From a virus (lineage: Duplodnaviria; Heunggongvirae; Uroviricota; Caudoviricetes): a DNA stretch of 33,615 nucleotides. Positions within the stretch are counted from its first letter, which is position 1; each line of letters starts with the position of its first letter. Where the stretch lies: IMG/VR virus record IMGVR_UViG_2563366821_000007; one strand, 5' to 3'. The translations under genes and the position numbers were made by a program. Below the pieces are notes generated by a model that had not been told where the DNA came from, made no database searches, and was given only the letters and a program-made list of their open reading frames with translations. Below are positions 7,492 to 22,727 of the stretch, in pieces.

Positions 7492-8407
7492 AAGTTGTTG
7501 GATTTTGGCTTTTATCTTCTTTGTAAGAAAGAAGGTCACACATCAAATTAACTACCTTGCTGAATTGGAAAAGGTCAGCGCCAGTCTGATGACGCCACTG
7601 GAATGCTTTATCATCTTCATCATTAAATGTCTGAGATTGAGTATTGATGCGCGAAAAATGGAAATTTTCGGTAAGAATGAAGGTCACACCGCAACCGGAT
7701 AACTCCATTTTATCAGCAGTGAAACTACTACTAAGGCTATCGGCCAGTTCGCTTTGAATTGACTCATGCTCAGCTGAGTAGCGAATAATTTCCTTTTGAT
7801 CTGCGTAGCGTGATAGCTGAATATAATTTCCGACAGTGAATCCTTCAAATGCATTGGCTGCACCATTGATGTAGTTATTCAGGCGTGTAGTCAGTCCATT
7901 CTTGATATCACTGATGTTGATTGTTTCTGTTTTCACTGAACCGACAACCTTAATCAGCATTGCGCATACCATACCGGCTATTATTTTATTGGTTGTGTTG
8001 ATTACCAATAATTTCTCATCAGTGCTGTACAATGCAAGAATCAGAGTAGACTTAACAAATGCCTGTTTGCATAGATCTACTCGTACGTTATCAATAATGG
8101 CCAGTCGTTCGGCACGCTTTAATTTATTCCCGGACATATTTTCGGTTGTTTGGATTCGAGAATTAGCTTCTTTCATGACGACATGTCGGGGAATTATTTT
8201 CTGATCATGACGGATTACCATTGCGTACCCACCAGATATCGGAGTTACCAGTTCACCAGTGACAGGATTCTCTACAAAAGAGGACCGTGAAAATTCTGTT
8301 TCCCCGATTTCAGAATAAGGGAGTTCGAGAAGATGACCTTCAATAGCCTGTATACTAGGTAATGTTGCTCGGTACACAATTGCGTTACGAAATTTTGGTA
8401 ATTTCAT
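7490..8407 (-). CDS. rdgC: RdgC-like recombination-associated protein
   Basis: Start reset to ATG 8405-8407 (MKLPKFRNAIVYRATLPS), resembling the RdgC N-terminus (MLWFKNLMVYRL...); about 305 aa as expected for the family; AT-rich. Confidence 0.6.
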   Translation of the reverse strand: MKLPKFRNAIVYRATLPSIQAIEGHLLELPYSEIGETEFSRSSFVENPVTGELVTPISGGYAMVIRHDQKIIPRHVVMKEANSRIQTTENMSGNKLKRAERLAIIDNVRVDLCKQAFVKSTLILALYSTDEKLLVINTTNKIIAGMVCAMLIKVVGSVKTETINISDIKNGLTTRLNNYINGAANAFEGFTVGNYIQLSRYADQKEIIRYSAEHESIQSELADSLSSSFTADKMELSGCGVTFILTENFHFSRINTQSQTFNDEDDKAFQWRHQTGADLFQFSKVVNLMCDLLSYKEDKSQNPTT

Positions 8408-8441
8408 TCTATTTTCCTCTGCACAATGTATTAGTTTCTCC

Positions 8442-8530
8442 ACAAAACAGAGAAGAACACCTGCGGTGGCAGCCGCCCGGATGGATTGGGTTATGAGCCC
8501 GTCGTCCGGTGATGCTCTTCTCTGTTTTGT
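8442..8530. repeat. Inverted repeat with 15-bp perfect arms and 59-bp spacer
   Basis: ACAAAACAGAGAAGA (8442-8456) and TCTTCTCTGTTTTGT (8516-8530) are exact reverse complements; the spacer has its own CCGGA/TCCGG stem; located just upstream of rdgC in a non-coding stretch. Confidence 0.5.
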
Positions 8531-9050
8531 AAAAAGAGCGGTACCAGCCGGAAGCAAGTGTACAAACTGGTACCGCCAAAGCAGTGGCTGTTGTGGTGGG
8601 GTTGTCACTCAGGCGTATGGTCAACCTGACAACCCGGTGTCCTCAACGGGGAAAGAGTAACCCCGCCATACTTACCGCCGCGCCATTTCGCGGATTACCA
8701 CAACGCTGAGAGCACTTAGCCAGTTACGGCACCACACTTTGTCGCGGTTCCATAAATGCCCTCATCGTTGCACCCTGGTCTCTTCCCAGGCGTCAAACCG
8801 AATCGCCACGCTGGTTAGGCGTCTTATCAGCATCCTCATTGACTTGCACATTCCGGCTATCTGGTTTGTTTGCCCGAGCAAGGAGTGGATTGTCCCCTTT
8901 AACGTCCCCAGACCGCTAACGACGCATGTGCCATACGCCGTGTTACAACCAAATTTTGTTAGTACCTTGTTTGTAGGTCTGGAGAGAAAGATAAAATGAA
9001 GTTGCGCATTATGCAAGTGTTTTATTGCGAGATAAGCAATTTGGTGGGTA

Positions 9051-9073
9051 ATGAAAAGCCACCTTCTGGTGGC
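9051..9073 (-). terminator. Rho-independent terminator downstream of the cI-like gene
   Basis: GCCACC-TTCT-GGTGGC hairpin (9058-9073); on the minus strand it is followed by a U-rich tract (UUUUCAUU); sits 23 bp after the cI stop. Confidence 0.5.
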
Positions 9074-9095
9074 TAATTGATGTTGAGGTAGGGGG

Positions 9096-9788
9096 TTAAT
9101 TGTGTCGCTTAAGGGTCTGTGACTGACTGATTAAGACCTTTCCAAAGACCATAAACCGGTGTTCGTTTTCGCTGGTAATTCCCCATTCGCGGTAAATCTG
9201 ATTATCAGAAATTACCAGCAGTTTATCAGGTATCATTTGCAGTCGTTTGACGTAAATTTTATCATCAAAACCAAATACATATATACCATCCCCATCAAAC
9301 TGATTGATACTGATATCAACGAAGATGAGATCTCCTGGCTCAATGGTTGGACACATACTGTCCCCACGAACGTTGATAACTTTAATGTGATTTGCTGGTC
9401 GTCCACCAAACATCGATACAGCATTATCAGTTCTGTATTCAATGGCATGAATCACATCAATGACATCACCGCCCTGGATAAGGCCATTTCCCGCACTGGC
9501 ACTGACATCCAGCATTTCAATACGGAATACATCCTTCACCTGCGTAACATCCTCACTAATACTGTTTTTACATACAGTATTACTTTTGAGGTCTGAGGTA
9601 AAGAGATCAGCAATATCAACACCTAAGCTCCTGGCAATATTACTCAGGGCTTGTTCAGTGAATTGTTTCTGCTTACCTGTTTCGAGGCGCGAGATATTCG
9701 CCGCATCCACTCCTATTGCTTCAGCGAGATCGGCGATTTTCATGTTCTTCGCCTGGCGAAGTTGTCTGACTCGATTTCCTATGTTCAT
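9096..9788 (-). CDS. cI: CI-type prophage repressor (HTH_XRE N-terminus, S24 LexA-like peptidase C-terminus)
   Basis: 230 aa; N-terminal helix-turn-helix (IADLAEAIGVDAANISRLETGK); C-terminal S24 signature with catalytic Ser in GDSMCPT and Lys in YVKRL; divergent from a cro-like gene. Confidence 0.85.
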   Translation of the reverse strand: MNIGNRVRQLRQAKNMKIADLAEAIGVDAANISRLETGKQKQFTEQALSNIARSLGVDIADLFTSDLKSNTVCKNSISEDVTQVKDVFRIEMLDVSASAGNGLIQGGDVIDVIHAIEYRTDNAVSMFGGRPANHIKVINVRGDSMCPTIEPGDLIFVDISINQFDGDGIYVFGFDDKIYVKRLQMIPDKLLVISDNQIYREWGITSENEHRFMVFGKVLISQSQTLKRHN

Positions 9789-10146: not shown

Positions 10147-10696
10147 GCATCATTGGAAAGTGGAAAAACAACCTGAGTGGTACGTGAAAGCTGTCAGAAA
10201 AACTATCGCGGCATTGCCTGGGGGTTACGCTGAAGCTGCTGACTGGCTGGATGTAACAGAGAACGCTTTATTCAACCGCCTTCGTGCAGATGGCGATCAG
10301 ATTTTCCCGCTGGGATGGGCAATGGTTTTACAGCGCGCGGCTGGCACTCACTACATTGCGGATGCTGTCGCACAATCTGCTGGTGGGGTGTTCGTATCGC
10401 TTCCTGAAATTGAGGAAGTAGAGAACGCCGATATAAACCAGCGCCTGCTGGAAGTCATCGAACAGATCGGGAATTACTCAAGGCAGATTCGTTCGGCAAT
10501 CGAAGATGGGGTCGTGGAGCCACACGAGCAGACAGCAATTAATGATGAGTTGTATCTGTCAATTTCGAAGCTCCAGGAGCATGCAGCACTGGTCTACAAA
10601 ATCTTTTGCGCTCCAGAAAAGAGTGACGCCCGCGAGTGTGCAGCTCCGGGCGTCGTGGCGTCGATTGCTTCTGGTTGTGGAGAAACTAACGCATGA
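10139..10696 (+). CDS. Putative CII-family phage regulatory protein
   Basis: 185 aa; GTG start after AGGAGG, overlapping cro end; position (third gene of the right operon) and the ALFNRLRADGDQIFPLGWAMVLQRAAGTHY segment recall phage regulatory CII-family proteins; identity not verified. Confidence 0.4.
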   Translation: MGKHHWKVEKQPEWYVKAVRKTIAALPGGYAEAADWLDVTENALFNRLRADGDQIFPLGWAMVLQRAAGTHYIADAVAQSAGGVFVSLPEIEEVENADINQRLLEVIEQIGNYSRQIRSAIEDGVVEPHEQTAINDELYLSISKLQEHAALVYKIFCAPEKSDARECAAPGVVASIASGCGETNA

Positions 10697-11841
10697 ACAG
10701 TTTAACGGCAAATAACCGTTTGTCGCAACAGCTGGTGGTCAGCGTCGCTGAACACCTGTTGTTACGGCATGAATGCAGATTACCAAATCACCTGGCTGTA
10801 AGTAACCACAGAGAACTTTACCTGACTGTGGGGGGCGAGTTGTGCAGGAACTTAACCGCTGGTTTCGTGACGGAAGAGGACTTTATGTTCATGTTATTCG
10901 TTGGGAGCCAGAAACACAGCGCGTTATCTATCTTCGCAAAGACTACCAGCATGAGTGCTTTAGTCCTTTGTGGAAATTCAGGCGTGATTTTGTTGAGTGT
11001 GAAGGACCACCAGCACATTGATTCTGCCATTCCGGGACGTTACACTGTTCAGGCACCTTATAAAGCGGGTGTCGGGATTGGCGTCCTGGAATTGCATACG
11101 GCGACAATTGGCGCGTTAGCGTCTTTTTTGTTGCTACAACTCAGCTATACCCAAATTATGGTGGGCTGGGTGGGGGCACCGAAAGGTGCGCCGGTTTCCG
11201 TATGCGCCGGTTACGCCAACCCTGCTCAGTTCACCACCAGCGAAATTGGCGTTTCCGGTGGTGGAAGTTATCCATTGCATACGGAGGCTGCCATCATGGC
11301 TACGATCCCAACCCTCACTCAACCTGAAATTGCCATCGTTGATGGTCAGGCTGTTACTTCATCCCTGGCTGTTGCCAACTTCTTCTCCAAACGTCATGAC
11401 GATGTACTGAAAAAGATCCGCACGCTTGAATGTTCCGCATCATTCACTGCCCGCAATTTTTCGGTGAGTGATTACACCGATTGCACAGGCCGCAAACTAC
11501 CTTGCTATCAAATAACCCGCGACGGCTTTGCGTTTCTTGCTATGGGTTTCACGGGTAAACGTGCTGCCCAGTTCAAAGAGGCATACATCAATGCCTTTAA
11601 CCAGATGGAGAAACAGCTTTCAAAGCCCGCTGTACCGAGCGACGTTGCACATAACGCCAGCGTTCTCTATTCCTACATTTCATCAATTCATCAGGTCTGG
11701 CTGCAGCAGCTTTATCCTATGTTGGCAAAAGCCGAATCTCCGCTGGCTGTTAGCTTGTATGACTATATTAATGATGCTTCGGCGCTGGCCTGCCTCATAA
11801 ATTTGTCGCTGAATCCTTCAGAGGTAAGGGGGCGTAAATGA
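10693..11841 (+). CDS. Rha-family phage regulatory protein (N-terminal extent uncertain)
   Basis: Rha-like signature GQAVTSSLAVANFFSKRHDDVLKKIRTL begins after ATG 11296 (GGAGG 8 nt upstream). The track frame is open from ATG 10693 (ATGA-coupled to the CII-like stop), but the upstream 600 nt contains an overlapping 59-codon alternative frame (10842..11021) and a terminator-like hairpin (11110-11129). Confidence 0.55.
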   Translation: MNSLTANNRLSQQLVVSVAEHLLLRHECRLPNHLAVSNHRELYLTVGGELCRNLTAGFVTEEDFMFMLFVGSQKHSALSIFAKTTSMSALVLCGNSGVILLSVKDHQHIDSAIPGRYTVQAPYKAGVGIGVLELHTATIGALASFLLLQLSYTQIMVGWVGAPKGAPVSVCAGYANPAQFTTSEIGVSGGGSYPLHTEAAIMATIPTLTQPEIAIVDGQAVTSSLAVANFFSKRHDDVLKKIRTLECSASFTARNFSVSDYTDCTGRKLPCYQITRDGFAFLAMGFTGKRAAQFKEAYINAFNQMEKQLSKPAVPSDVAHNASVLYSYISSIHQVWLQQLYPMLAKAESPLAVSLYDYINDASALACLINLSLNPSEVRGRK

Positions 11842-12719
11842 TCCGGAATATTTTCAAACTGTTTACCAATCGCCACCAGCATATTGATTCTGCAATTCCG
11901 GGACGTTACACTGTTCAGGCACCTTATAAAGCGGGTGCCGGGATTGGCGTCCTGAAATTGTCAACGGCGATGTATGACGCGCCAGCGTCTTTTTTATCGT
12001 CCGCATTTGCTCACATCCAGATTATGGTGGGCTGGGCGGGGGCACCGAAAGGTGCGCCGGTCTCCGTTGACGCCGGTTACGCCAACCCCGTCCAGTTCAC
12101 CACCAGTGAAATTGGCGTTTCCGGTGGTGGAAGTTTTTCACTGTCAACGGAGGCTGCCATCATGGCTACGATCCCAGCCCTCACTCAACCTGAAATCACC
12201 ATTGACAACGGCCAGGCCGTTACCACTTCTTTGGCTGTTGCCAACTTCTTCTCCAAGCGTCACGACGATGTGCTGAAAAAGATCCGCACTCTGGATTGTT
12301 CCCCTGAGTTTTGTGCCCGCAATTTTGCGGAGACATCGATTTCGGTAAATCAACCGAACGGTGGTACACGCAAGCTCCTTTGCTATCAAATCACACGAGA
12401 CGGTTTTGCGTTTCTTGCTATGGGTTTCACGGGTAAACGTGCTGCCCGGTTCAAAGAGGCATACATCAATGCCTTTAACCAGATGGAAAAACTGCTTTCA
12501 AAGCCATCCACGCTGAGCGATGCCGCAGATAACGCCAGCGTGCTTTACTCCCACCTGTCGGTAATCCACAAGGTCTGGCTGCAGCAGCTTTATCCCATGT
12601 TGGCAAAAGCCGAATCCCCGCTGGCTGTAAGTCTGTATGACCGCATCAACGACGCGGCGCTACTGGCCAGTCTCATAAATTTGTCGCTGAACCCTTCAGA
12701 GGTAAGGGGGCGTAAATGA
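11838..12719 (+). CDS. Rha-family phage regulatory protein (tandem paralog)
   Basis: 293 aa; ATG overlaps the upstream stop (ATGA); C-terminal 185 aa paralogous to 11296..11841 (Rha-like motif GQAVTTSLAVANFFSKRHDDVLKKIRTL); 5' 320 nt conserved with the upstream copy; alternative start ATG 12162. Confidence 0.6.
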   Translation: MIRNIFKLFTNRHQHIDSAIPGRYTVQAPYKAGAGIGVLKLSTAMYDAPASFLSSAFAHIQIMVGWAGAPKGAPVSVDAGYANPVQFTTSEIGVSGGGSFSLSTEAAIMATIPALTQPEITIDNGQAVTTSLAVANFFSKRHDDVLKKIRTLDCSPEFCARNFAETSISVNQPNGGTRKLLCYQITRDGFAFLAMGFTGKRAARFKEAYINAFNQMEKLLSKPSTLSDAADNASVLYSHLSVIHKVWLQQLYPMLAKAESPLAVSLYDRINDAALLASLINLSLNPSEVRGRK

Positions 12720-12940
12720 TCCGGAATATTTTCAAACGGTTTACCAATCATACTTTCCGTTGTCCTCGTCCGGGTCAGTGGTACACCACGCCTGCAGGGC
12801 ATGTTCTACGTGTTAGCCTGGTTGACCGTGAATGTCAGAAGGTGATTTGTGAACCGCTGGGCCGTAATTACCGCGTCAGTATGCCGCTTATAGCCTTTCG
12901 CTCCGGAAAAAACATGAAGCATCTCGGAGGTGCTGCATGA
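12716..12940 (+). CDS. Hypothetical small protein (74 aa)
   Basis: Shares its first 11 codons (MIRNIFKRFTN) and upstream junction with 11838..12719, then diverges; ATGA-coupled at both ends. Confidence 0.45.
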   Translation: MIRNIFKRFTNHTFRCPRPGQWYTTPAGHVLRVSLVDRECQKVICEPLGRNYRVSMPLIAFRSGKNMKHLGGAA

Positions 12941-13755
12941 GTATGGAGTTGATGGTTAAAGCGATGAAAATTCGAGTGGGAAATCCATTGCGAAAACTGG
13001 TTCTGATTAAGCTGGCTGATAATGCCAGCGATCAGGGTGAGTGCTGGCCCAGCTACCAGCATATTGCTGACCAGTGCGAGATTAGCAAACGTTCTGTGAT
13101 GAATCATATTGCGGCCCTTTGTGAGTCCGGGCTGGTAAAAAAAGTCACCCGGAAAGGTGAAAAAGGTAACTCAAGTAATATCTATCTCCTTCATCTTGAT
13201 GGTGCAGGAGATTCACTAGGGGGTAGTGCAAATAATTCACTATCTGGTGCAGCAAATTCACCAGGTAGTGCAGGAGTTGCACCAGGGGGTAGTGCAGGAG
13301 ATTCACCCAGAACCAGTCACTCTTTTGAACCAGTCAAAGAACCAGTCAATGAACCAATAGCTGTTGGTGCATCTGCTGATGAGTCTGTGCGAGTTCGTTC
13401 AAACCGACCGGAATACTCTCCGGAGTTTGAGCAGGCATGGCTGGCCTATCCAAAACGTGCTGGTGGCAATTCAAAATCTGCAGCCTTCAAAGCCTGGAAA
13501 GCCCGTTTGAATGAGGGGGTAAACCCCGAAACCATGCTGGAAGGTGTGAAACGCTACGCGGGCTGGGTATCTGCGATGGGTAACAGCGGCACACAATTTG
13601 TGAAACAGGCTGTCACGTTCTTTGGCCCGGATCGTCATTTCGAAGAATCCTGGGAAGTTCCTGCGGTATCTGCAGTCAGACGCGAGGACCCGTACTTCAA
13701 AGCCAGTTACGACAACGTGGACTACAGCCAGATCCCGGAAGGATTCAGGGGGTGA
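12937..13755 (+). CDS. Replication initiation protein (lambda O-like, N-terminal HTH)
   Basis: 272 aa; N-terminal LVLIKLADNASDQGECWPSYQHIADQCEISKRSVMNHIAAL resembles phage replication-initiator HTH domains; a Gly/Ser/Ala-rich linker coincides with iteron-like DNA repeats, as in lambda O. Confidence 0.6.
   Translation: MSMELMVKAMKIRVGNPLRKLVLIKLADNASDQGECWPSYQHIADQCEISKRSVMNHIAALCESGLVKKVTRKGEKGNSSNIYLLHLDGAGDSLGGSANNSLSGAANSPGSAGVAPGGSAGDSPRTSHSFEPVKEPVNEPIAVGASADESVRVRSNRPEYSPEFEQAWLAYPKRAGGNSKSAAFKAWKARLNEGVNPETMLEGVKRYAGWVSAMGNSGTQFVKQAVTFFGPDRHFEESWEVPAVSAVRREDPYFKASYDNVDYSQIPEGFRG
13198..13360. repeat. Iteron-like direct repeats (candidate replication origin) inside the O-like gene
   Basis: Five imperfect ~19-bp repeats of consensus GGT(AGT)GCAGGAGATTCAC at 13201, 13221, 13246, 13264 and 13288, followed by GAACCAGTCAA x2 (13327-13350). 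Confidence 0.5.
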
Positions 13756-20023: not shown

Positions 20024-20099
20024 GGCCCTTTAGCTCAGTGGTGAGAGCGAGCGATTCATAATCGCCAGGTCGCTGGTTCAAATCCAGCAAGGGCCACCA
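20024..20099 (+). tRNA. tRNA with CAT anticodon (Met or lysidine-modified Ile2-type)
   Basis: Cloverleaf read by eye: 7-bp acceptor stem GGCCCTT/AAGGGCC, anticodon stem GCGAT/ATCGC with loop TCATAAT (anticodon CAT), T-loop GGTTCAAATCC, 3' CCA encoded. Confidence 0.8.
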
Positions 20100-20106
20100 T
20101 CACATA

Positions 20107-20183
20107 CCGCCATTAGCTCATCAGGATAGAGCGCCAGCCTTCGAAGCTGGTTGCGCGGGGTTCGAGTCCTCGATGGCGGTCCA
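20107..20183 (+). tRNA. tRNA-Arg (anticodon TCG as read)
   Basis: Acceptor CCGCCAT/ATGGCGG, U8, D-stem GCTC/GAGC, anticodon stem CCAGC/GCTGG with loop CTTCGAA (anticodon TCG), T-loop TTCGAGT, CCA encoded; C1:G72 base pair is unusual and the anticodon should be confirmed computationally. Confidence 0.7.
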
Positions 20184-20196
20184 TTATCTGTACCCT

Positions 20197-20273
20197 GCGT
20201 TATTAGCTCAGCCGGACAGAGCAATTGCCTTCTAAGCAATCGGTCACTGGTTCGAATCCAGTACAACGCGCCA
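20197..20273 (+). tRNA. tRNA-Arg (anticodon TCT)
   Basis: Acceptor GCGTTAT/ACAACGC (one mismatch), anticodon stem ATTGC/GCAAT with loop CTTCTAA (anticodon TCT), T-arm ACTGG-TTCGAAT-CCAGT, CCA encoded. Confidence 0.8.
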
Positions 20274-20318: not shown

Positions 20319-20765
20319 CTCACAATTCAGACGGTTGACAGTTGTCTGTTTTGCGGGGAGTTTGTTAAAAGAAACTGGCATGGTGAATCCCCCTGTGCGG
20401 AGGGGCAATCAGCAACTGGTGTTTTGTCACCGACCCTTATCCTTTCTGTGCGGGTTCAGGTGCTGATACTGAACTCACCGGGAGGCACCCGGCATCATGT
20501 GCATGATGATACAGATACGCGGCTTTAGCCCCTCTCCGGAGGGGCTTTCTTGTGGGCAAAAAAAAGCCCGAGTGGGTTCGGGCAACAGCATGAGATATAC
20601 ATTTTTATAATCGAATGGATTTTAACCAGAATTCATAAGGCTGCGCAACTGCGCGGTCTTTTTCGAATTGCGGGCTGTCGTCTCTCTTCTGCCATTGTCC
20701 TGTAACTTCCGGACTTCAGCCCGCTCCTTATTTTACTCACAATATTATCCCGGCCGGGAGGATTC

Positions 20766-22727
20766 ATGGCATTTAAACACTATGACGTGGTCAGGGCGGC
20801 ATCGCCGTCAGACCTTGCGAAACGACTGACACAAAAACTGAAGGAGGGGTGGCAGCCATTTGGCAGTCCGGTGGCCATCACGCCTTATACCCTGATGCAG
20901 GCCATTGCGGCGGAAGGTGATGTCACCACACCTGTGGTGGTGAAGCCGTCGGATGGAGAAGGCGCAGTTATCAGCACTACCAGCAACCCGGAGTATTACT
21001 TTGTTGTTGCCCTGGCCGGGCAGTCAAACGGTATGGCGTATGGTGAAGGGCTTCCGCTGCCGGAGACATATGACCGTCCGGACCCGCGTATTAAACAGCT
21101 GGCGCGTCGCAGCACTGTCACGCCGGGTGGTGCGTCCTGTAACTACAATGACATTATTCCTGCGGACCACTGCCTGCATGATGTTCAGGATTTGAGTAAG
21201 TTTTCACACCCGAAAGCCAGCGCAGCTCAGTATGGATGCGTGGGGCAGGGATTACATATCGCGAAGAAATTGTTGCCGTTTATTCCGGCGAATGCCGGTA
21301 TTCTTCTGGTTCCGTGCTGCCGTGGTGGTTCTGCATTTTTGGCGGGCGATGAAGGTACCTTCAGCGAATCCACCGGCGCAAGCGAGACCTCGGCACGCTG
21401 GGGTGTAGATAAGCCACTGTACAAGGACCTGCTTACCCGTACTCAGGCCGCACTGAAGGCCAACCCTAAAAATATTCTGCTTGCAGTGGTCTGGATGCAG
21501 GGCGAGTTTGATTTGAAACAGGGTGCATACGCCACTCAGCCGGGGCTGTTTGATTCCATGGTGGAAAAATATCGTTCTGACCTGTCGGAATTCGGAGGTC
21601 AGTGTCTCGGGGGCTCTCCGTCATCAGTTCCCTGGATTTGTGGCGACACGACCTACTACTGGAAGCAGACTTATTCTTCGCAATACGATGCGGTGTATGG
21701 TGCATATAAGACGAAATCCGCAAAAAAAATTTTCTTTGTGCCGTTTATGACGGATGAAAACGGGCGAAATGTGGGTACCAACGAGCCGTCAGAAGATCCG
21801 GATGTTGCGGATATTGGGTATTACGGAGCCGGTGGTCGAACGGACGCCAAAACCTGGACGACGGCTGACCGTAAAACGCATTTTGGATCATGGGCACGTC
21901 GTGGGATTATTTCCGACCGTCTGGCAACGGCGATTCTTGTGCATGCCGGGAGAACCGCTGAATTCATTACCGGAAAACAGCCTGATACGGTGAAGCCCAC
22001 CGGACCTTCCGGTGAAGGTACGGAGAGAGAGCCGGAAGGTCCGGTCAGTAACCGAACCCTGATGAGTCTGCTGGCGTCCGGCGAAGACCTGGCATCACAG
22101 GGCTGGCGCTATTATCACAAACCGGCGAGCGGAGACAATGTTAACAAAAACATTGCTGAAGCGGTGGTCAGTGATGCGGGGGCTACGGGAGGTAAGGCCC
22201 TGCAACTGAATAAACCGGAAAACCACATCTGGTTTCTGGAGCATGATGCAGCCGGGCAGGGGGCAGAGTTGCTGAAGAAAGGAGGACGTGTGAGCGTACG
22301 GTTTAAGTTGCCGGGTTCACTGGTGCCGAATCAGTTTGCCCTGGGCATTTACTGGCAGTTGTCGTCCCTGCCGGAGGGAGTGACGCTGGCAGAGGAAGGC
22401 AACGACATGCTGATGTCCTTCTTCCTGCAGACGGATGCGACGAACCTGAACGCGATGCACCACAAGAAGCCGAATGCGAAGCTGGATACGTTCGGGGTCT
22501 TTGATAACGGATGGCACACACTGGCTTTTGAGTTTGCCGGAAACAACAGCATTCAGGTGACGCCGGTACTGGATGAGAAACGGGGGACGCCGTTCACACT
22601 GGTGAAATCTCCGGCATCAGGGGCGGCGGACAAACTGCAACTGACAGGCATATCAAAGGCGGCGACATATACGCTGCTGATTGACAGTGTGAAGGTGGAA
22701 GTGAACAACGCGGATGCCGCGGCATGA
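20766..22727 (+). CDS. Prophage sialate O-acetylesterase (NanS-p-like; N-terminal DUF1737 plus SGNH hydrolase)
   Basis: 653 aa; N-terminus MAFKHYDVVRAASPSDLAKRL typical of DUF1737; SGNH block I (VALAGQSNG) follows; GGGAGG Shine-Dalgarno; located downstream of the tRNAs as in Stx-type lambdoid phages. Confidence 0.75.
   Translation: MAFKHYDVVRAASPSDLAKRLTQKLKEGWQPFGSPVAITPYTLMQAIAAEGDVTTPVVVKPSDGEGAVISTTSNPEYYFVVALAGQSNGMAYGEGLPLPETYDRPDPRIKQLARRSTVTPGGASCNYNDIIPADHCLHDVQDLSKFSHPKASAAQYGCVGQGLHIAKKLLPFIPANAGILLVPCCRGGSAFLAGDEGTFSESTGASETSARWGVDKPLYKDLLTRTQAALKANPKNILLAVVWMQGEFDLKQGAYATQPGLFDSMVEKYRSDLSEFGGQCLGGSPSSVPWICGDTTYYWKQTYSSQYDAVYGAYKTKSAKKIFFVPFMTDENGRNVGTNEPSEDPDVADIGYYGAGGRTDAKTWTTADRKTHFGSWARRGIISDRLATAILVHAGRTAEFITGKQPDTVKPTGPSGEGTEREPEGPVSNRTLMSLLASGEDLASQGWRYYHKPASGDNVNKNIAEAVVSDAGATGGKALQLNKPENHIWFLEHDAAGQGAELLKKGGRVSVRFKLPGSLVPNQFALGIYWQLSSLPEGVTLAEEGNDMLMSFFLQTDATNLNAMHHKKPNAKLDTFGVFDNGWHTLAFEFAGNNSIQVTPVLDEKRGTPFTLVKSPASGAADKLQLTGISKAATYTLLIDSVKVEVNNADAAA

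Follow-up and report, generated by a model that had tools for sequence, protein, structure and literature searches.

A tandem pair of IsrK/C4-type RNA cassettes in front of Rha-family putative antirepressor genes in a lambdoid prophage

Two small RNAs in front of each Rha gene

The 33,615-nt IMG/VR record IMGVR_UViG_2563366821_000007, assigned to the Caudoviricetes and called here the window in its full length, contains two tandem repeat units, each carrying a Rha-family gene preceded by a conserved leader. We find that this leader corresponds to an immunity cassette already known from phages, which consists of the small RNAs IsrK and C4 and holds an antirepressor gene silent, and that each unit is very probably an immI-type cassette, in which an antisense RNA is placed before a Rha-family putative antirepressor gene. 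A preliminary description, made from the letters of the sequence alone, had considered for the same segment an attenuator or leader RNA controlling Rha expression, a modular N-terminal protein domain, or a recombination junction generating paralog diversity.

Both RNAs are recognized over the full length of their Rfam models. The isrK model (RF01394, gathering score 50), which describes two hairpins at the 5′ end, then a spacer, and finally a terminator hairpin followed by a U-run, matches positions 11053-11129 in unit 1 with 58.9 bits and 11919-11995 in unit 2 with 62.2 bits (model positions 1-77 of 77 in both cases). The C4 antisense RNA model (RF01695, clan CL00128, gathering score 45), which describes a long closing stem around two hairpins, matches 11154-11241 with 80.7 bits and 12020-12107 with 81.4 bits (model positions 1-87 of 87). 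Each isrK match ends exactly at a hairpin followed by six T residues, GGCGCGTTAGCGTC plus T6 at 11110-11129 and GACGCGCCAGCGTC plus T6 at 11976-11995, and the hairpin is therefore the IsrK terminator. These two hairpins, already pointed out in the preliminary description, are the two top terminator-like sites of the region in a terminator scan, and the G-U versus A-U difference between them is real: among 72 related modules, A-U is found in 49 and G-U in 11. The idea of a regulatory RNA leader thus holds, with the hairpin and T6 as part of IsrK, but the leader is more than an attenuator, since the Rfam matches, the covariation presented below and the parallels with P1, P4 and Gifsy-1 describe a two-RNA antisense cassette.

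The elements of the two units are listed below in P1 nomenclature, together with the genes that they precede; SD stands for the Shine-Dalgarno sequence, and (+) for the plus strand. Most elements of unit 2 other than those with their own boundaries lie at the unit 1 position plus 866.

11007-11872 (+), unit 1, from the alignment of both units
11018..11046 (+), putative promoter of unit 1: TTGATT 11018-11023, 17-nt spacer, TACACT 11041-11046
11053..11129 (+), IsrK-like RNA of unit 1 (Rfam isrK, terminator scan)
11078-11084 (+), a1 of unit 1, TTGGCGT, second target copy upstream of C4
11094-11101 (+), b1 of unit 1, GCATACGG, second target copy upstream of C4
11110-11129 (+), weak terminator of unit 1, hairpin plus T6 (terminator scan)
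11154..11241 (+), C4-type RNA of unit 1 (Rfam C4)
11197-11205 (+), b′ of unit 1, the recognition loop of hairpin 2, UCCGUAUGC
11213-11219 (+), a′ of unit 1, single-stranded, ACGCCAA
11246..11287 (+), target region of unit 1, with a2, b2 and SD
11246-11252 (+), a2 of unit 1, TTGGCGT
11277-11285 (+), b2 of unit 1, GCATACGGA, overlapping the SD GGAGG 11283-11287
11296..11841 (+), Rha-1, 181 amino acids, putative antirepressor (Pfam Phage_pRha, 1.7e-30)
11838..11886 (+), stacking junction, from the unit alignment: first 11 codons of the downstream small gene joined to unit 2
11873-12750 (+), unit 2, from the alignment of both units
11884..11912 (+), putative promoter of unit 2: TTGATT 11884-11889, 17-nt spacer, TACACT 11907-11912, identical to that of unit 1 at an offset of 866
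11919..11995 (+), IsrK-like RNA of unit 2 (Rfam isrK, terminator scan, octamer search)
11944-11950 (+), a1 of unit 2
11960-11967 (+), b1 of unit 2, GTCAACGG
11976-11995 (+), terminator of unit 2, hairpin plus T6 (terminator scan)
12020..12107 (+), C4-type RNA of unit 2 (Rfam C4)
12062-12071 (+), b′ loop of unit 2, CUCCGUUGAC
12079-12085 (+), a′ of unit 2, ACGCCAA
12112..12153 (+), target region of unit 2, with a2, b2 and SD
12112-12118 (+), a2 of unit 2, TTGGCGT
12143-12152 (+), b2 of unit 2, GTCAACGGAG, overlapping the SD GGAGG 12149-12153
12162..12719 (+), Rha-2, 185 amino acids, putative antirepressor (Pfam Phage_pRha, 4.4e-27; PHROG)
12716..12940 (+), intact 74-amino-acid downstream gene (PHROG 1153, 4e-45, full length)

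Pairing of the immI type can be drawn in both units. In unit 1, UCCGUAUGC faces GCAUACGGA, over GGAGG, and ACGCCAA faces UUGGCGU; in unit 2, CUCCGUUGAC faces GUCAACGGAG, and ACGCCAA again faces UUGGCGU. The start signals proposed earlier for the Rha genes are present, with each GGAGG (11283-11287 and 12149-12153) standing 8 nt before ATG 11296 or ATG 12162. A conserved CCA immediately follows the closing stem of C4 (CACCAC-CAG), which fits a tRNA-like substrate and suggests processing of C4 by RNase P. The putative promoter is kept across the main module group and lies 7 nt upstream of the 5′ end of the Rfam isrK match; transcription would start at about 11053 in unit 1 and about 11919 in unit 2.

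Covariation and specificity of the C4 loop

When IMG/VR was scanned with a pattern for the C4 core, 120 loci were obtained, whose loops represent at least 21 different sequences. For 16 of these 21 classes the SD is covered, at a constant position, by an exact complement of the loop, 8-10 nt long, and for 15 of the 21 a complement of 7-9 nt is present within the IsrK part. We then relied on an alignment (A2) of 72 distinct modules, taken from IMG/VR, from E. coli and from the window, on which all the pairing counts below were made, and in which a shuffle was scored as reaching the observed value if it did so in either the percentage of paired cells or the covariation score. The intramolecular structure is paired in 94% of cells, with 27 of its 49 pairs changed on both sides; pairing between the loop and b2 amounts to 94.6% (7 of 9 pairs co-vary), and between b1 and the loop to 96.6% (7 of 8 pairs co-vary). 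None of 500 shuffles reached the observed value in any of the three comparisons, and when the partner of the loop was slid by 1-3 columns, pairing with b2 fell to 30-49%, with all slid controls ranging between 30 and 52%. Helices 1 and 2 of isrK are 98-99% paired, with both-side changes, and the long stem and hairpin 1 of C4 are 96-100% paired, with 14 of 22 pairs changed on both sides. The covariance check across homologous modules that had been suggested with the preliminary description thus finds co-varying stems and loop-target pairs alike, and pairing of the C4 loop with both of its targets is under selection. Within the 33.6-kb window itself, the octamer GCATACGG occurs at exactly three sites, namely b1, b′ (on the complementary strand) and b2, all in unit 1, and the octamer GTCAACGG likewise occurs at exactly three, namely b1, the complement of the loop and b2, all in unit 2.

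These data bear on the simplest alternative, a cis-acting attenuator in which transcription would end at the hairpin and T6, ahead of Rha, except when an antiterminator or translation from upstream let it continue, with no antisense RNA involved. A conserved terminator-like hairpin with T6 does stand between the promoter and Rha in both units, and the homologous P4 system works via premature termination (PMC4825925). A bare attenuator, however, leaves unexplained the 88-nt C4 structure with its 14 co-varying pairs, the three-way co-variation between one loop and two distant sites, and the position of b2 over the SD, and we give it very little chance.

The two units have the same a sites, and in the unit alignment b1, b′ and b2 each show three nucleotide differences: the loop of unit 2 is changed at three positions, and the changes are matched in its b1 and b2. 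Loop-only duplexes with b2 yield -21.6 and -23.8 kcal/mol for cognate pairs, as opposed to -13.4 and -15.5 kcal/mol for non-cognate ones; for unit 2, b2 pairs with its own loop at -23.8 kcal/mol and with the loop of unit 1 at -13.4 kcal/mol. With b1, cognate duplexes are at about -17 and non-cognate ones at -7 to -11 kcal/mol. From the 3-nt differences and the duplex energies, the units are predicted not to cross-react, and would constitute two independent locks on paralogous antirepressors. This predicted independence is reminiscent of the heteroimmunity of P1 and P7. Folding of full-length C4 against the full-length target was also tried; it gave similar energies for cognate and non-cognate pairs, being uninformative because intramolecular structure is ignored, and was replaced by the loop-only duplexes and the covariation counts.

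Comparison with P1, P4 and Gifsy-1

When the Rfam models were run on P1, P4 and Gifsy-1, the IsrK/C4 pair was found in all three, in the same order, before a gene that inactivates a repressor. The P1 record annotates promoters, a1, b1, a 77-nt c4 RNA, a2, b2, icd and ant1/ant2, and P1 scores 68.8 bits with C4, only 35 bits with isrK and 51 bits with c4-a1b1. The window shares with the immI region of P1 and P7 the order of promoter, a1, b1, C4 (with b′ in a loop and a′ in a single strand), a2, b2 over the ribosome-binding site, and start codon, and the spacing after C4 matches as well, with a2, b2 and ATG at +1, +30 and +48 nt in P1 and at +5, +36 and +55 nt in the window. The regulated product of P1 is an antirepressor, and that of the window is a putative one. 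There are also differences: the window has no separate icd, the small ORF between C4 and ant on whose translation ant expression depends in P1, and b2 with its SD is instead part of the cargo gene itself; its cargo is of the Rha family rather than Ant; the cassette lies in a lambdoid early-right operon; and it is present twice in tandem. Unlike that of P1, the a1/b1 part in the window has a clear intrinsic terminator, and therefore fits the isrK type. The C4 RNA of P1 is released as a substrate of RNase P.

In Gifsy-1, where the order is isrK, C4, AnrP and isrJ and c4-a1b1 scores 48 bits, IsrK derives from transcripts that stop at its terminator, while a fraction reads through into orf45-anrP; the orf45 region gives rise to a stable RNA, STnc1160, and is conserved in nucleotide but not in amino-acid sequence (Hershko-Shalev et al. 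2016, PMC4825925). The window resembles this locus in having isrK with a leaky terminator, a C4-family RNA (the orf45/STnc1160 region) and an antirepressor-like gene, in the b2 site over the SD of the cargo gene, and in an AUG at about +106 relative to the start of the transcript, which falls in the 5′ strand of C4, within AAUUAUGGUGGG in both. That codon, ATG 11158 (ATG 12024 in unit 2), is the counterpart of the first AUG of orf45. However, orf45 ends in an AUGA overlap with anrP, whereas the window frame runs stop-free into Rha (46 codons); the loop of Gifsy-1 is 4 nt shorter, so that orf45 reads the 3′ half of C4 in another frame than the window ORF (open reading frame). AnrP has no similarity to Rha-1, isrJ is absent from the window, and the Gifsy-1 cassette lies beside the late-gene regulator Q, not in the early region. 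As far as sequence comparison can tell, the window works like the Gifsy-1 locus but is not its orthologue.

In P4, isrK (60.8 bits) and c4-a1b1 match seqA and C4 (74.9 bits) matches the CI RNA, again in the same order, and the region lies upstream of the derepression gene epsilon. The difference is in the output: the P4 CI RNA acts by premature transcription termination of a long operon (PMC4825925), its cargo being the whole replication and derepression operon.

The leader as RNA or protein

The preliminary description had noted that the long frames of 382 and 293 amino acids, which run through the leaders into the Rha domains, are open, and so they are. If the leader encoded a modular N-terminal domain, as one of its suggestions went, a coding signature, with more changes at third positions and indel lengths divisible by three, would be expected in the comparison of copies, frame by frame. 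The 243-nt leaders of units 1 and 2 differ at 43 positions, distributed over codon positions as 13/16/14 (P=0.85), in contrast to the Rha genes, where the 92 differences are distributed as 23/16/53 (P=3e-6). Similarly, in 28 distinct close relatives the variable columns of the leader fall on codon positions as 29/28/25. What is conserved in the leader is precisely the set of RNA stems, target sites and promoter. The 24-nt linker that leads from the terminator to C4, at 11130-11153 in unit 1 and 11996-12019 in unit 2, differs by 62% between the two copies; across the wider family its length ranges between 60 and 109 nt, and the length differences are not divisible by three. An open frame across the 243-nt leader is in itself unremarkable, as 7-17% of dinucleotide shuffles are open per frame (P=0.07-0.17). 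The identity of the RNA families, the architecture of the units, the co-variation and the lack of a coding signature in the leader are directly established, and the proposal of an N-terminal domain is not supported, in view of the absence of codon-position bias, the linker indels, and the situation in P4 described below.

In several clades (e.g. L013, L034, L071, L011), an extra 38-44 nt are found between the IsrK terminator and C4 (columns 111-154 of A2). This insert includes a T-run and may form a hairpin of its own, e.g. ATTTTCCGGGCTGTGGTG...CACCATGG.

The full profile of the Pfam family Phage_ASH (PF10554) matches nt 11041-11328 (2.9e-17) and 11907-12194 (8.8e-21), running from the -10 box across the RNA leader into the first Rha codons. 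The sequence is thus the same as that of the “Bro network” domain PF10554; here it is without protein-type constraint and coincides with the RNA cassette. Ash has been treated as a domain of unknown function in Shiga toxin (Stx) phages, with “Rha/Ash proteins” described for Eru6, Eru7 and Eru9 (PMC8951638), and an Eru6 reference phage, Stx2a_WGPS2, is a close relative of the region. Although profile hidden Markov models do match, the leader shows none of the constraint expected at the level of a protein domain. In P4 (L123), Phage_ASH matches the old “cI gene product” ORF at 8168-8584 on the minus strand, which lies over the CI RNA (C4 match 8420-8507), so that P4 and the window share a Phage_ASH match to an ORF over the RNA. 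Since Ash in P4 overlies the CI RNA, “Ash” is best read as a translation of the RNA cassette, and Phage_ASH gives the impression of a protein family modelled on what is in fact an RNA gene. Identification of the P4 epsilon protein as Ash was considered as well, PF10554 having been used as an epsilon profile (PMC8628076), and was rejected, as current Pfam places epsilon in PF25738 and not in Phage_ASH.

The opposite possibility is that the long ORFs are genuine, the segment encoding an “Ash” N-terminal domain fused to Rha and the RNA features being secondary. It can draw on the full-profile Phage_ASH matches to both segments, on PHROG 821 and 995, which take in this segment as well, on annotation of the long ORFs by the Prokaryotic Genome Annotation Pipeline (PGAP), and on the finding that orf45 of Gifsy-1, which overlaps the C4 region, is translated (PMC4825925). 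We nevertheless regard it as quite improbable: substitutions in the leader lack the third-position excess seen in the adjacent Rha genes, conservation is restricted to stems, targets and promoter with a strongly diverged linker, frame-breaking indels are found in related modules, the P4 ORF of the same Pfam family overlies the CI RNA, both Rha genes are equipped with a strong SD and an ATG of their own, and open frames of this length and composition are not rare among shuffles. In all likelihood, then, the 382- and 293-amino-acid ORFs are annotation artefacts of a stop-poor leader. Translation of Rha most likely begins at ATG 11296 and ATG 12162; the orf45-like ATGs 11158 and 12024 may be used in addition and, being in frame with Rha, would yield at most an N-terminally extended isoform.

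Several observations weigh against our interpretation of the units as immI-type cassettes. Among the 28 close relatives, stop sites are absent from the leader in the Rha frame, as compared with 14 polymorphic ones in the other two frames (nominal P about 0.003, the sequences not being independent); this suggests that translation through the leader may matter, and speaks for a fusion protein as well. The segment 10693-11295 is open in frame far above shuffles (P<0.001). A consensus promoter scan of 10600-13100 called no promoter, because only 8 of 12 consensus positions match, so that the promoter is deduced only from the fact that it is conserved and from where it lies with respect to the 5′ end of isrK. 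The Rfam model c4-a1b1 (RF03163) scores 20.4 and 21.6 bits, below its gathering score of 46.7, on the same stretch over which the isrK match passes its threshold. As there is no icd or orf45 frame with its own stop, the translational-coupling step of P1 and Gifsy-1 cannot operate here in the same form. Finally, the identity of the a sites in both units makes some cross-talk possible.

Proposed mechanism

By combining the sequence data with what is established for the related systems, we infer promoter activity, RNA processing and the direction of regulation, along with antirepressor activity of Rha and independence of the units, as follows. A constitutive promoter, active in the lysogen, would start transcripts at the two positions given above. 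Most of them would stop at the weak 5-bp hairpin with U6, to yield a 77-nt IsrK-like RNA carrying the decoys a1 and b1. Transcripts that read through would contain the C4-type RNA, which is probably excised by RNase P, by analogy with P1. The b′ and a′ segments of C4 would then pair with b2 and a2 located just downstream, and, because b2 overlaps the Rha ribosome-binding site, this pairing would block Rha translation in the lysogen; it may also allow early transcription termination, again by analogy with P1. If a phage of the same specificity entered the cell, its copy of the gene would be silenced by C4 too. Because the target sequences are also present on the IsrK-like RNA, this RNA would compete for C4, thereby switching the system on, as in Gifsy-1, and the released Rha would then act as an antirepressor.

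The tandem arrangement could also be a functional, hierarchical switch with two keys, and not a neutral stacking. If so, two C4 RNAs would confer immunity to antirepressor expression by two specificity classes of phages. Ribosomes that finish Rha-1 could continue from ATG 11838 through IsrK-2 and C4-2, unfold the lock, and make the 293-amino-acid extended Rha-2, so that opening of lock 1 would open both, while opening of lock 2 would free Rha-2 only. In addition, the stop-free frame beginning at the ymfL stop (10693) would let translation of the early operon override the RNA lock in lytic growth. We consider this combination of features rather unlikely.

Origin of the tandem pair

The two units of about 0.87 kb, offset by 866 bp, are present where the preliminary description had placed them, in both the repeat search and the unit alignment; they form two direct repeats, with offsets of 866 and 878 bp and an identity of 84-89%, far beyond chance. 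The junction GTAAGGGGGCGTAAATGATCCGG and the MIRNIFK(L/R)FTN leader, which had been reported to recur in front of different coding bodies, are indeed seen at 11838 and 12716. At 11838, the ATG overlaps the Rha-1 stop as ATGA and is preceded by AGGGGG as its SD, and the MIRNIFKLFTN codons run at 11872/11873 directly into unit 2, whose left end reads CCACCAGCATATTG. At 12716 the same codons open the intact PHROG 1153 gene, a hypothetical protein in E. coli genome annotations, the first 34 nt of which are the segment duplicated into the junction. The right end of the unit lies 34 nt inside this gene, hence the presence of the MIRNIFK leader twice, before different bodies.

Identity between the two units is only about 88%. 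Unit 1, however, is 98.4% identical to the single-copy module L092, and unit 2 is 99.3-99.4% identical to the single-copy modules L002, L023 and L029. The existence of such single-copy relatives for each unit, together with their low mutual identity, points to the stacking of two pre-existing alleles, and rules out duplication in situ followed by divergence, which we had also considered; the units were presumably united by recombination between phages with different alleles. The exact junction (100% identity) was found in only 8 of 5426 complete E. coli genomes, about 1900 of which carry a related module. Among the loci that we fetched there are two kinds of tandem pairs, which have unit 2 in common and differ in the loop of unit 1, and the paired loops are always unequal. 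The best match to the whole finding among complete E. coli genomes is only 93.8%, because the tandem loci in those genomes have another unit 1 (loop GGTCATGTGCGA). Locus L067 (IMGVR_UViG_2541047739_000008, 7531-9274) is 100% identical to the window across both units, and may represent the same prophage.

The earlier suggestion of a recombination junction that generates paralog diversity is therefore correct in part: the repeated leader and junction mark a stacking boundary that cuts the PHROG 1153 gene after 11 codons, but the units pre-exist singly elsewhere. An active recombination site, shuffling or diversifying the Rha paralogs, would account for one 34-nt gene start and junction sequence standing before two different bodies, for tandem loci with another unit 1 and the same unit 2 and junction, and for the 12-nt motif ACCAGCAYATTG at the left end of both units and again in the replication gene. 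Yet the junction is identical in all of the few complete genomes that have it, which fits a single ancestral event, both units have nearly identical single-copy alleles in other prophages, and the units are flanked by neither a recombinase gene nor inverted repeats. We attach next to no probability to such a site.

The 12-mer ACCAGCAYATTG is present in the window in three copies (11009-11020, 11875-11886 and 13055-13066), against 0.01 expected, the third copy falling some 115 nt inside the replication (HTH_36) gene. It also brackets the cassette in single-module loci (L003-L122), being found 181 nt before the C4 core and 683, 987 or 999 nt after it, within the replication gene. The motif may mark a module boundary, serve in recombination or bind a protein.

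Cargo genes and other features of the window

Both long ORFs carry a Phage_pRha match, as expected from the Rha-family domain reported earlier for each unit. Rha-1 and Rha-2 are 79% identical (BLASTP), and both appear intact. Rha-1 matches PHROG 821, 518, 373 and 63, and Rha-2 has PHROG matches as well; the families are named Rha-like regulator, anti-repressor and anti-repressor Ant, and several phage records name the homologue an antirepressor. Going by these names, Rha would act as an antirepressor. The cassette lies in the early-right operon of a lambdoid prophage, between cII-like and replication genes; the prophage repressor is encoded at 9096-9788 on the minus strand.

In phage Ayreon (L124, MF807953; 2689-3525), the leader is 100% identical to that of unit 1 (11005-11300) and precedes a different, much shorter cargo ORF. 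The long ORF of Ayreon is annotated as “immunity region”, and some loci have a 264-nt downstream ORF. With AnrP of Gifsy-1 also unrelated to Rha-1, the RNA cassette is a portable module that stands before different cargo genes.

The 59-codon ORF at 10842-11021, singled out earlier as more protein-like than the frame overlapping it, encodes a DUF4222 protein (Pfam 1.1e-13; PHROG 1343, 4e-36, full length). The frame of the 382-amino-acid ORF starts at an ATGA overlap with the stop of the ymfL/cII-like gene (10693), and is open for 120 codons upstream of the RNA start; this stop-free frame crosses the DUF4222 gene in another frame. Between 10693 and 11021, variation is distributed over codon positions as 6/11/14 before DUF4222 and as 4/4/9 in the DUF4222 frame, counts that are small, since the relatives compared are 98-99% identical.

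Downstream, inside the replication-protein gene, four copies of a repeat of about 29 nt (GTGCAGGAGATTCACTAGGGGGTAGTGCA and variants), 21-24 nt apart, occupy 13202-13296; they may be origin iterons or repetitive linker code (GGSA/GSAG). Farther away, three tRNA genes (20024-20096, 20107-20180 and 20197-20270) are followed by STnc100 (20349-20557, 131.7 bits) and, on the minus strand, AsxR (20561-20613, 63 bits). This layout of tRNA genes, STnc100 and AsxR is that found upstream of stx in Stx phages; the next long ORF here encodes 653 amino acids (20766-22727), and no pair of ORFs of stxA and stxB size was seen in the ORF list of the window, which looks like an stx-less relative of Stx phages.

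Significance

Both RNA families, their target sites and the regulatory logic are already known, and the mechanism is unchanged. What is new is the form of the cassette found in the lambdoid early region, in which b2 gates a Rha-type gene directly, and a tandem pair whose members differ in specificity, an arrangement seldom found. PGAP lists nothing but protein-coding genes here, the long ORFs being given as “Rha family phage regulatory protein”, and Pfam and PHROG families also treat the leader as protein; the main practical value of the finding lies in correcting the “Ash-Rha fusion protein” annotation. With at least 21 loop specificities and their matching targets, the family provides a large natural set of presumably independent RNA locks, and the tandem pair is a natural test of whether two of them work independently. 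Reading “Ash” as an IsrK/C4 cassette gives a testable role to widespread genes, as RNA-gated antirepressors that would affect prophage induction, and hence the stability of Shiga-toxin phages.

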